Position numbers: made by a program. Below are positions 3,001 to 6,000 of a DNA stretch of 18,717 nt, piece by piece. Positions within the stretch are counted from its first letter, which is position 1. The number at the start of each line of letters is the position of its first letter. The DNA lies in the IMG/VR virus record IMGVR_UViG_2703718806_000010, positions 1-18,717 of that record; one strand, 5' to 3'. Source of the stretch: a virus (lineage: Duplodnaviria > Heunggongvirae > Uroviricota > Caudoviricetes).

Positions 3001-6000
3001 ATCTCTTTCGTCCACGGATTAAGTCCGTACTGGTTGGCGACGATCAGCAGCGCGATGAATTGCGCATCGCTGGCATTACCTTTAAATGCCGTCTGGCGAA
3101 GAGTGGCGATCAGTTCCTGCGGGTCGACAGAATCCATGCCGACGCGTTCAGCCAGCTTTCCGGCCAGTGTTGCAAGTGCTGTACTCATTCGTTTTATACC
3201 TCTGAATCAATATCAACCTGGTGACGAGCAATGGTTTCAACCATGTACCGGATGTGCTCAGCCACGCGTTCCTGAAATTCAACATCGTCATCAAATGCGC
3301 GACTGATTGCCTGTTTGCTGGCACCGTGGCGTTGCAAATGGTCGATGCAGAGCGATTCAAACAGGTGCTGGGGCAGACCTTTTTCCAGGTCGTCCGCCAG
3401 CGCCGTTTCTTTTTCTTCGCGAACGATTTGCTGGTAGTGGCGTGACCATGCCTGCTCTTCAATGCGATCAAAAATTGGGCATGTACTCATCATCCGTCAC
3501 CCCAAAATTTTCAAGTTTGTTTGCAATCATCATTGCAATACCCGGAATTAATGGCGCTGAGGCTATACCTGCAGGATTCGCACATAAACCGTAAACCGCC
3601 GCAATCACCACTTGTCTTTTCCAGTCGAGTTTTTCTAATGATGAAGCTGCTGCTTCGCCAGTTTCATCACTGCAATCGCGATGCGGATCGCTGTCAGCGT
3701 TCTCCTTGTGCGGATGTTCAGCACCTTCCATTTCCTCCAGACCTTTTTCCTGATATTCATTCTGATTTTCTTCATTAAAGGTTTTCTGATACGTTGCGTC
3801 GCCCATCACCGCGCCACAGTCAGGACAGTTGCCGCCGCCAGCCTTACCGCAGGCGGTGCAAACTTTCTCCGTTTCTACTGGCTCAGGCTGTTTCGTTTCT
3901 GGCTCGTTTTGTTGCGTATTTGGGTCGTTCTGTTCCGTTTCTGGCTGATTCTGGTACACAGAGTCGCGGGTCTGGATCCCCTTAACCCATTTCGGATCAT
4001 TCGGGTCGCTAATCCCTTCAACAAATTCTCCGCGAGAGGCAGCCAGTAATTTATCTGCATCGACAGGATTTTTGGGCGGAATGTTTTTCCGGGCTTCATG
4101 GAGTTCTGCCCGCAGTTTCTGATATTTCGCATCAACAGAATTTACCTGTGACTGAGCATCCAGCGGCTGCGTGTCCTGATGATGTTCAGTTGCATCCGGT
4201 TCCACTGTTTCAGCCGTTGCCTGTTCATCTGCCATTGCGCAAGATGGTTGCAGTTTTTCTTCATCATCCTGTTTTTCTTCTTCTGTTACACGCTGCGGTA
4301 TCGGGGCAGAGGAGCGACCGCAGGCAATATCCACGATTTCCGGATCAGGGTTGGCATGATCGGTTTCGGTCAACACTTTGTTGAGATATTCAGTCACGCG
4401 CGCCGGGATAGCCTCAATGCCGATTGGTGCTTCTTTCACGGAAGCCACCACAATGGCGCGGGAATAATCCAGCCCACCGGGCATGGCGATGAATTTGTCA
4501 CGGAAAACAGAAAAGGGCGGTTTATTCTCTGCAACGATTTCTTCAACGCGTTTTGCATGTGCAGGGTGCAGGTTATAAATATCCACATCCATTGAACGGG
4601 CCAGAACGCCAGTGGCAATGTCTCGCGCCAGTGATGCCTGATTGTGGGTAAAGCCTTCGCCACGATCGGTAAGATTTCCGCCGCCAGCGTTAGCACCGGA
4701 AGGCGTACGGGTGATGCCTGTAACACAATTTCCTTTCTGCCATTCTTTTGTCAGCAATCCCTGATCCACATAGTCTGTTTTCATCCAGGTGGAGATGAAC
4801 TTGTCGAATTCGGCCGGGCCGATATGACGGGTTGTTGAGTGAGAGAATGCCTTTCCAACGGATTGTGCCAGTCTTCCCAGATGATAATTCGTCAGCTTAT
4901 CCAGTTCTGGATGTGAACGCACAGCAGTAAGCAGGCTCTGAAGGTAACTGTCTTCTGTGTCCATCTCCAGACGAATCACCTGATTACGTTGTTCTGGTGT
5001 GGCGTGATGCCGGTATTTTCCATCTTCATCCTTGCTGAAGAAGAAGAGGTGAAGGAAGCGATGAGTAAGGCTCAGAGTGGCGACGGGAATTTCACACTCA
5101 GAACAGTTATCGTCGCTGTCCGGGGATTCGCTTTTCTCCACATCATCCGGAATAGTTCCGTCCAGGTTATCGTTGTCATCGCCAGCAGTTGTGGCATCTT
5201 CACCGTTGATGTTGTCATCGAAGGGGATAGCCATCATGGTGATGCCATCGTTACCGCCTTTTTCATAGCGGTTGCAGAATTCAGTATCAAACACGCCTTC
5301 CGGTGGAAGGTCATTCACGACGGGGAAATTTACGCGAACGGGTTTTTTGAAATCATCCTCGTCGTGGCCTGCATCGTCCATGGCTGCAATGCAGCGGGAA
5401 ACTGCGACAGAAAGTTTTCTGGCCTCGGTCCAGAAAAAACCGCCTTTGATGCCAAGGCGTTTTCTGACTTTATCGTTTTTTGCTTCGCAGTGTAGTGCAA
5501 AAGTCTGTTTATCAGCGCTCATTGTATTTAAACCTCTGGCTGGATTAGAATAAGCGACCCTTTGTCTGATTTCTCCGAATACAGTGACGCAGGAGGAAAT
5601 CCGGTAGCCTGCGCTGCCGGATTTTTATTTCAGTGAAAGGTTGCCTGGTTTGCTGTTTTGTGAGTTGTTTTTTCCTTTTCGTGCTGGCATTCAGGGCAGT
5701 CGCACTCAGAATTTTCTCTTGCAAACTCAAGAGCCAGCGCCAGTTCATGGATTTGTTGTGCTTCAATGTTGCTTCTGACGACTTCACATGCGGCATGAAT
5801 ATATGGGCTTGGTGTTTTGCCATTTAACCCACATGAAACCAAACGACTGTCTTTATATTCGTTATTTCCAACTTCTGTAAGCACTGAAAAAGAAAATACA
5901 TAGTCGATTTTGTATTCTTTGCATATTTTACTGATGCGGTTTGCAATTTCATTAAGTTCATTTACTGCTGTCTTTTCGGTTTCAGAAAAGATTTGGTCAG

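Follow-up and report, generated by a model that had tools for sequence, protein, structure and literature searches.

We analyzed an 18,717-nucleotide (nt) stretch of viral DNA (the window; positions 1 to 18,717 of IMG/VR record IMGVR_UViG_2703718806_000010, Caudoviricetes), which is the early region of a lambdoid prophage. The subject is the spacer at about 5522–5630, between a minus-strand gene of 128 amino acids (aa) and a minus-strand RecE-like gene. A first-pass annotation, made without database searches, had placed there a terminator and possibly a small RNA (sRNA) on the opposite, plus strand. As that annotation stated, no plus-strand gene is nearby: all of 1–5522 is taken up by minus-strand genes (int, exo, bet, gam and the RecE-like gene), and cro, cII, O and others lie on the plus strand beyond cI. 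The genes, from the open reading frame (ORF) map and annotation except where another source is given, are as follows.

1–1164, minus strand: int
1726–2406, minus strand: exo
2403–3188, minus strand: bet
3194–3493, minus strand: gam
3468–5522, minus strand: RecE-like gene ('RecE family'), 684 aa, similar to the RecE N-terminal part, with gam, bet and exo downstream (Pfam Exonuc_VIII, phrog_607)
5630–6016, minus strand: 128-aa gene, phrog_2016, the upstream neighbor in the position that RacC has in Rac (ORF map, PHROG)
ydaE and kil homologues, then cI (8593–9363), minus strand

Within the spacer the following features were distinguished.

5523–5629, minus strand: intercistronic leader of the early-left mRNA, from the 128-aa gene to the RecE-like gene, the presumed cis target (ORF map, annotation of identical DNA)
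5522–5527, plus strand: putative −35 box TTGTAT, overlapping the start codon of the RecE-like gene (sequence; same place in spacer types A, B, C and A-del)
5546–5551, plus strand: putative −10 box TAGAAT after an 18-nt spacer (sequence; invariant in type A variants)
5556–5630, plus strand: predicted sRNA of about 72–75 nt, with a predicted 5′ end at about 5556–5558 and a predicted 3′ end in the U-tract at 5626–5630 (folding; for the 3′ end, analogy with K-12; Hfq reads in O157 Sakai)
5568–5601, plus strand: alternative 5′ hairpin, GATTTCTCC (5568–5576) with GGAGGAAATC (5592–5601), G5595 bulged, overlapping the 5′ arm of the terminator (folding)
5595–5626, plus strand: terminator hairpin, core 5597–5608, loop 5609–5612, 5613–5624 (sequence, folding, stem variation)
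5622–5630, plus strand: U-tract TTTTTATTT (sequence)

The plus-strand hairpin

The core of the hairpin runs from A5597 to C5608 and from G5613 to T5624 around the loop CTGC (5609–5612). All 12 positions pair in the plus sense, as claimed in the first pass, 11 of them as Watson–Crick pairs and one as U5605·G5616, which is A·C in the minus sense. RNAfold extends the stem to 14 pairs by adding G5596·U5625 and G5595·U5626. After the stem's own TTT the tail continues with T5625–T5626, A5627 and T5628–T5630, and its end meets TCA (5630–5632), which is complementary to the codon that stops the 128-aa gene upstream. The U-run is indeed confined to the plus sense, the minus-sense tail being UUUCCUCCUGCG. 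With a stem of 12–14 bp, a 4-nt loop and the tail UUUUUAUUU, the hairpin has the structure of an intrinsic terminator.

Of 37,372 windows folded over both strands, only one distinct local structure is more stable than that of the 32 nt at 5595–5626 (−20.3 kcal/mol). The same 32 nt fold at −15.6 kcal/mol in the minus sense, so that the plus sense is better by about 5 kcal/mol. A 78-nt plus-strand RNA containing the hairpin has a z-score of −3.5 (0 of 200 shuffles fold as well), and its minus-sense counterpart one of −1.6. Among variants of the window's spacer type (type A), A5599G and A5597G keep a G·U pair in the plus sense only, and T5605C restores a G–C pair. A generic terminator scan listed the K-12 counterpart and not the hairpin of the window, presumably because the G·U extension shifts the tail window, or because of the thresholds of the scan. 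The strand-specific energy and U-tract, allelic variation by G·U only and the 3′ end found in K-12 (see below) all support the plus-sense reading, and we hold with high confidence that a plus-sense terminator lies at 5595–5630.

An alternative 5′ hairpin that competes with the terminator stem had also been proposed. The hairpin exists, although its first arm lies at 5568–5576, one base off from the 5569–5577 given earlier. In the nascent RNA up to 5612 the alternative is the best fold (−7.9 kcal/mol), but in the full RNA it is outcompeted (−20.5 kcal/mol versus −27.3 kcal/mol for the terminator fold, which is that of the predicted full sRNA; terminator pair probability about 1.0). We therefore rejected an anti-terminator switch through this hairpin as energetically minor, since it loses by about 7 kcal/mol. 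As read from the sequences, an O104:H4-type variant has the alternative hairpin as a perfect 9 bp.

Alleles of the spacer and expression in Rac

Over 5400–5750 the window is 100% identical to E. coli 2013C-3033 and 92–98% identical to the Shiga toxin (Stx)-converting phages phiSTEC1589-Stx1c, PhiR5_2, POCJ13 and 75/02 Stx. Among 5,426 complete E. coli genomes, the type A spacer (126-nt query, 5515–5640) turned up in 81, O104:H4 included. It occupies 82 places in these genomes, with the same two flanking genes among the matches listed, and no other locus. A repeated or mobile palindromic element was rejected in view of this confinement of the type A sequence to one locus.

Loci for comparison were collected through their flanking proteins, so that the spacer itself introduced no selection bias, and an additional exact scan was made with the promoter box of types B and C. 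The spacer upstream of recE-like genes occurs in at least three to four alleles: A, B, C and a less clear D. In sequence, neither their RNA bodies nor their hairpins can be aligned with one another. Their hairpins, in the plus sense, are given below together with a deletion derivative of type A.

Allele A (the window): AAATCCGGTAGC-CTGC-GCTGCCGGATTT, then TTATTT
Allele B (Rac of K-12, where it is the racC–recE spacer, and Sp10 of O157 Sakai): ATAGCCTGCG-CCATA-CGCAGGCTAT, then TTCTTTCAGATTT
Allele C (IMG/VR viral contigs): GCCTGYAC-NNN-GTGCAGGC, then TTTCTTTTTT
Allele D, less clear (IMG/VR viral contigs): two hairpins
A-del (L003, from E. coli 23CRST047, and L085/L135): type A derivative with 38 nt of the body missing (window 5565–5602)

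Common to all alleles is a hairpin directed against recE with a U-rich tail on that strand only, the tail reaching the stop codon of the upstream gene. A box of the form TTGTxT-N17/18-TA(G/A)AAT (or AAAAAT) lies over the recE start and leader in A, B, C and A-del, and is unclear in D. Stems are kept and loops are free, the triloops of type C being ACT, AGT, GTT, ACA, GTC and TGA. Across 26 distinct hairpin versions, 24 of 24 non-Watson–Crick stem positions are G·U in the plus sense and none is A·C. About six of these are independent internal sites, for which an outcome of 6/6 has a probability of about 0.02 if the two strands were equally likely. A single covariance model across the alleles was discarded because the bodies are not alignable, and per-allele stem statistics were used instead. 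From this sequence comparison we conclude that the arrangement is not due to chance and that a plus-sense terminator structure is under selection.

In L165 and eight other IMG/VR loci the type B loop CCATA is replaced by its reverse complement TATGG with the stem unchanged, an apparent inversion of the hairpin tip. With a 261-nt query spanning the type B spacer plus flanking sequence, matches were obtained in 1,780 of the 5,426 complete E. coli genomes, about one-third; K-12 and O157 are among them, and the set includes type C relatives. A contig scan combined with a RecE N-terminal alignment matched 61 stretches by pattern and confirmed none of them. An 85%-identical copy of the K-12 racC–recE junction occurs at 4892–5150 of the Actinobacillus phage vB_Apl-pPE4 (PP818812.1), whose recorded host, Actinobacillus pleuropneumoniae, makes Rac-like DNA unexpected there.

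Published transcript data bear on type B. The K-12 Term-seq data of Adams et al. (2021) contain a curated 3′ end at NC_000913.3 1417486 (+), labeled 'antisense racC' (PMC7815308 supplementary file 1). It averages 185,664 and 146,140 reads and is entered three times in the table file; in the same table sokC has 66,698 and sgrS 6,222 (PMC7815308). The 3′ end maps to GGCUAUUUCU^, 3 nt past the type B stem. An abundant plus-strand end right after the stem, the observation by which the first-pass annotation had suggested checking its terminator, is thus found, at the equivalent hairpin of K-12 only. The U-tail of type A is better than that of type B.

Hfq binding points the same way for type B. When Hfq was mapped by crosslinking and analysis of cDNA (CRAC) in O157 Sakai (Tree et al. 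2014), the recE–racC spacer, its name printed as 'recC...racC', ranked 64th among intergenic regions, with reads in one strand column only (0/2017, 0/247, 0/1374, 0/5561, 0/0; PMC4104026 Table S1B). The column that holds these reads also holds flanks of plus-strand gadY, chiX/micM, fnrS and the sucD 3′ untranslated region, and the other column holds minus-strand omrA, omrB and the csrA leader (PMC4104026). Because flanks of plus-strand sRNAs share their column, we take the crosslinked reads to be plus-strand. The Sakai spacer is identical to type B of K-12 (about 100 nt), with recE and racC on the minus strand, and the Hfq-bound RNA would therefore be antisense to recE and racC. Table S2 of the same study could not be matched to it by coordinate or locus tag, and racC and the locus are absent from the tables that we searched from crosslinking, ligation and sequencing of hybrids with Hfq (Hfq-CLASH) and derived from the sequencing of interacting RNAs after their ligation (RIL-seq; supplements of Iosub 2020 and Bar 2021). 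Upon RacR depletion racC and recE are derepressed together (bioRxiv 10.64898/2026.09.06.749655), and they therefore behave like one leftward early unit.

Candidate promoter and proposed function of the predicted RNA

The two promoter hexamers proposed in the first pass are present at 5522–5527 and 5546–5551, but sequence alone does not make them significant: only 8 of 12 positions agree with the consensus, and 22 matches of this level were found versus 24.3 expected from shuffles. The putative promoter fell below the threshold of a generic promoter scan and was not listed by it. At the same site, A, B, C and A-del have TTGTAT, TTGTTT or TTGTGT as the −35 box, and the −10 box is TAAAAT after a 17-nt spacer in types B and C, AAAAAT in A-del and invariant among the type A variants, which were gathered through flanking proteins. 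In the minus sense the recE leader of types B and C holds the hairpin UUUUAAUCU-GAGUUG-AGGUUAAAA (L093 400–423, or NC_000913.3 ~1417399–1417422). Its 5′ arm, complementary to the −10 box, takes part in sequestering the Shine–Dalgarno sequence, and the box may therefore be under a double constraint in these types.

Long untranslated antisense RNAs are stopped by Rho. A local promoter is favored because Rho would be expected to halt an antisense RNA begun far inside recE. From such a promoter the predicted sRNA would be the complement of positions about −34 to −108, counted from the ATG of the RecE-like gene, whose start codon reads CAT at 5520–5522 on the plus strand and whose Shine–Dalgarno sequence AGAGG lies at 5536–5532 (minus). 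The independent antisense RNA of about 70 nt suggested in the first pass is supported chiefly by analogy, through the box in A, B and C and the Hfq reads of type B, and a discrete sRNA with a local promoter is probable.

Coding readings were rejected: a 24-aa ORF with a TTG start (5562–5636) has no Shine–Dalgarno sequence, and a 93-aa ORF (5272–5553) has no Pfam or PHROG match. Likewise, a trans target inside the window was rejected, the only candidate being a chance-level match. It consists of 11 nt of perfect complementarity between the sRNA body (5563–5573) and a plus-strand transcript near 18145, with about 0.3 such matches expected by chance.

The best explanation of the element as a whole, which we regard as moderately likely, is an OOP-like cis-antisense sRNA that gates recE and the recombination module. 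The segment at about 5522–5630 would be a small self-contained plus-strand gene, with a sigma-70-type promoter, a body of about 40 nt and a strong terminator, and its sRNA would have perfect complementarity to the early-left (pL-type) mRNA in the intercistronic leader. Type A would be one allele of a positional family, of which type B (Rac) is expressed in lysogens and, by the CRAC reads, associated with Hfq. The sRNA, produced constitutively in the lysogen and acting like OOP but mirrored into the left operon, would pair with any leftward transcript extending as far as the border of the 128-aa and recE-like genes. RNase III would cut the long duplex, or the downstream recE-gam-bet-exo part would be otherwise destabilized or uncoupled, and the face-to-face promoter at the recE start could also interfere with weak leftward transcription. 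Upon induction, strong antiterminated transcription from pL would titrate out the sRNA as well as occlude its promoter. In this way the element would serve as a threshold filter, with the recombination module kept silent until induction. We are more tentative about cis-antisense gating of the recE module as the main job of the sRNA, which is possible rather than probable.

If this explanation is true, the recombination module in the left operon of lambdoid prophages is guarded by a second antisense RNA of the OOP type, in mirror image. RecE has been reported as a retron trigger (bioRxiv 10.1101/2020.06.22.160242; PMC11951105), and the retron-Sen2 toxin RcaT is reported to be blocked by RacC and triggered by RecE (PMC11951105). 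A point of post-transcriptional control would then be added both to the expression of recE/recT in Rac (the sbcA phenotype, recombineering) and to retron triggering. Anti-defense may be the role of the slot upstream of recE, which holds RacC in Rac (L093 489–764) and an unrelated protein here; the 128-aa protein has no similarity to RacC by BLAST.

Several points weigh against gating by an antisense sRNA. The expression data are all from type B, and expression of type A would follow by analogy. For none of the alleles was a start site found, the tables of Ettwiller 2016 having no entry for the locus, and the putative promoter of the window agrees with the consensus at no more than 8 of 12 positions. 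Conservation of the −35 and −10 boxes could reflect the recE start codon and leader and is not independent proof; in the recE mRNA of types B and C, the hairpin sequestering the Shine–Dalgarno sequence has the complement of the −10 box for one of its arms. The Shine–Dalgarno sequence of the recE-like gene lies outside the stretch covered by the sRNA, and the fold of the 5′ domain is not conserved even among type A variants. A-del keeps a hairpin of 6–7 bp, a T6ATTT tail and the AAAAAT box with a predicted RNA of only about 35–40 nt; it loses the body yet keeps the terminator, so that the body may be dispensable. Between type A variants the spacer is 92–95% identical versus 96–99.7% for the recE 5′ end, and the 128-aa gene is 77–99% identical. 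The spacer is thus not hyper-conserved, and the case therefore rests on architecture, not identity. Finally, a cis mechanism is neither favored nor disfavored by Hfq binding or by racC being absent from the RIL-seq-derived tables.

The main rival for function is a role in trans via Hfq, in which the RNA would be a regulator or a sponge of RNAs of the host or of other phages (like DicF or AgvB/AsxR) and its overlap with the recE leader would be incidental. The crosslinks of Hfq to the type B RNA in O157 speak for such a role, as do the abundance of that RNA in a lysogen whose leftward operon is repressed and a loose loop motif, UGAAU..AU.U.CC, common to types B, C and D. Cis-antisense pairs are, moreover, described as generally not requiring Hfq (PMC5145812). 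But no partner was found, in the Hfq-CLASH and RIL-seq-derived tables or, beyond the chance-level 11-nt match, in the window, and wholly different allele bodies misfit a single conserved host target; we consider the trans role rather unlikely. For identity, the main rival is a promoter-less insulator that would stop pervasive antisense transcription from int-exo-bet-gam-recE before it entered kil, N and the immunity region, the K-12 3′ fragment being a by-product. Such an insulator would explain why orientation and position are kept even where the body is deleted, and it fits with a modest promoter match and no documented start site. It accounts poorly for a 3′ end so abundant (185,664 versus 66,698 for sokC), for the TA(G/A)AAT box 45–50 nt upstream of the hairpin in three alleles and for the Hfq-CRAC signal of the recE–racC spacer. 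Rho, in addition, should stop 2–2.6 kb of untranslated antisense RNA before it came to the site. We judge the insulator improbable.

As a fallback, the first-pass annotation had considered an element of the leftward mRNA, that is, a stabilizing or processing hairpin or a weak terminator after the 128-aa gene. The hairpin does follow directly on the upstream stop codon, and its stem still forms in the minus sense at the energy given above. Every wobble, however, is G·U in the plus sense and A·C in the minus sense, no allele has a minus-sense U-tract, and the plus strand carries the sole curated K-12 3′ end at 14174xx, though the leftward operon is repressed there. This makes the fallback very improbable. 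A relic or chance palindrome, such as a terminator left at a mosaic junction by a plus-strand moron since lost, is scarcely credible. A mosaic boundary does lie near the stop codon, the 128-aa gene being 77–99% identical versus 92–99.7% for the spacer and recE 5′ end. Against a relic stand the same architecture in several alleles with non-alignable hairpins, a stem maintained while the loop varies, the expression of the type B allele at the equivalent position and the restriction of the type A element to this locus.

A broader and quite unlikely extension of the antisense-sRNA explanation is that the recE-upstream spacer of Rac-like and Stx-type lambdoid prophages encodes a widespread unnamed family of Hfq-bound antisense sRNAs, a single fixed position being filled now by one allele and now by another. 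Regulator and target come from opposite strands of one piece of DNA, so that every allele would have a specificity private to it. Resident prophages could then silence, in trans, the recombination or anti-defense module (racC or the 128-aa gene, then recE) of superinfecting phages, but only of those with the same allele; alternatively, the RNA could gate RecE. If true, private allele specificity would amount to an RNA-based, type-specific layer of immunity or exclusion against superinfecting phages.

Known RNAs and other elements of the window

Rfam gave no hit at the site at the gathering threshold in a search of the whole window, and a permissive search of the window site and the K-12 site gave chance-level hits only (E ≥ 0.6). 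The RefSeq record of K-12 has no RNA feature at the racC–recE spacer, and no sRNA named at racC–recE was found in the literature searched. A 2025 review of phage sRNAs covers OOP, aQ, sar, DicF, STnc6030 and others, and a search of its text found no mention of either the Rac prophage or recombination (PMC12197685). As far as checked, the racC–recE RNA and its allele series are unnamed, and their kind is known, that of the OOP-type phage cis-antisense sRNAs. K-12, among the best-studied of genomes, appears to make an abundant Hfq-associated sRNA that is absent from RefSeq, Rfam and the reviews searched.

The closest parallel is lambda OOP, a 77-nt RNA made from the promoter pO, antisense to the 3′ end of cII and dependent on RNase III; it has the same geometry and acts through RNase III (PMC12197685). 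Like OOP, the predicted sRNA is short and of similar size, has its own (here putative) promoter and a strong intrinsic terminator, is directed against a lambdoid early operon, starts in the spacer before the downstream gene and terminates at the end of the upstream gene. By analogy with type B it would also be made in the lysogen. Unlike OOP, it belongs to the left (pL) operon and not to the right, being placed upstream of the recE-like gene, and it overlaps only the upstream stop codon, whereas OOP overlaps about 55 nt of cII. There is no sequence similarity or homology that would place it in the OOP family.

A separate OOP-like unit is present in the window at about 10157–10064 (−). Its strong terminator, at the end of cII (9819–10115), is AGAACGTCCGG-CCCCAA-CCGGACGTTTT, then TTATTT (10092–10064, minus strand; −16.8 kcal/mol), and a CAGAAT −10-like box lies about 85 nt upstream of that terminator. 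The window holds a classical OOP plus the mirror-image element upstream of the RecE-like gene.

With the spacer RNA of Rac (K-12) and Sp10 (Sakai) the element has in common its position, its orientation and the placement of promoter box and terminator. Body and hairpin are not alignable, and RacC lies upstream there versus phrog_2016 here. RecE is full-length in Rac and Sp10, whereas the 684-aa protein of the window aligns to RecE residues 43–587 only (62% identity) and has an unrelated tail of about 60 aa in place of the C-terminal nuclease domain. Its annotation as an exonuclease ('RecE family exodeoxyribonuclease') is probably wrong. A complete gam-bet-exo set lies directly downstream of its gene.

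Other known RNAs are more distant. RalA, the antitoxin RNA of RalR in Rac, is likewise a prophage antisense sRNA of the early-left region with Hfq involvement (here from type B data), but ralR lies downstream of recT, and no toxin ORF stands opposite the RNA of the window. Nor is there a type I toxin–antitoxin system of the RalA/RalR or Sok/Hok kind: no small minus-strand ORF starts inside the spacer, and the sole short minus-strand ORF that overlaps it (5625–5690, 21 aa) lies within the 128-aa gene. P22 sar and lambda anti-Q (aQ) are cis-antisense RNAs whose promoters also face the regulated gene, and they combine RNA pairing with promoter interference. Their targets are ant and Q, and sar covers a ribosome-binding site, whereas the sRNA of the window leaves the Shine–Dalgarno sequence uncovered. 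AgvB/AsxR and DicF are also short, Hfq-binding prophage RNAs (for our element, from type B) with conserved lambdoid positions and several allelic forms. They lie, however, downstream of PR′ or in the dicB operon, and the element has no sequence or Rfam match to them. The anti-sRNAs share a conserved 3′ region of 42 nt (PMC4104026). In location and sequence the element differs from the AgvB/AsxR/EcOnc01-03 group (51–60 nt, with a 3′ region of about 42 nt, at the PR′ moron site).

Other RNA-like features occur elsewhere in the window. Upstream of the kil homologue, 6704–6667 (−) is a strong intrinsic terminator, GGCGGACATC...GATGTCCGCC, then CTTTTTT (−16.8 kcal/mol); by its appearance it would be of the tL type and belong to the antiterminated left operon. 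In the first 110 nt of the RecE-like ORF, two motifs of a hairpin and U-run occur in the mRNA sense, at 5459–5441 and 5437–5415 (−): CGCCTTGGCATCAAAGGCG then GTTTTTTCTG, and TTTTCTGGACCGAGGCCAGAAAA then CTTTCTG. These could be an attenuator, or the mere coding of an 11-residue protein motif. In the late-regulatory part, the Rfam family sRNA-Xcc1 (RF02221) has two full-length matches about 580 nt apart, at 15409–15492 and 15985–16068 (+), with scores of 79.3 and 75.7 bits versus a gathering score of 53.

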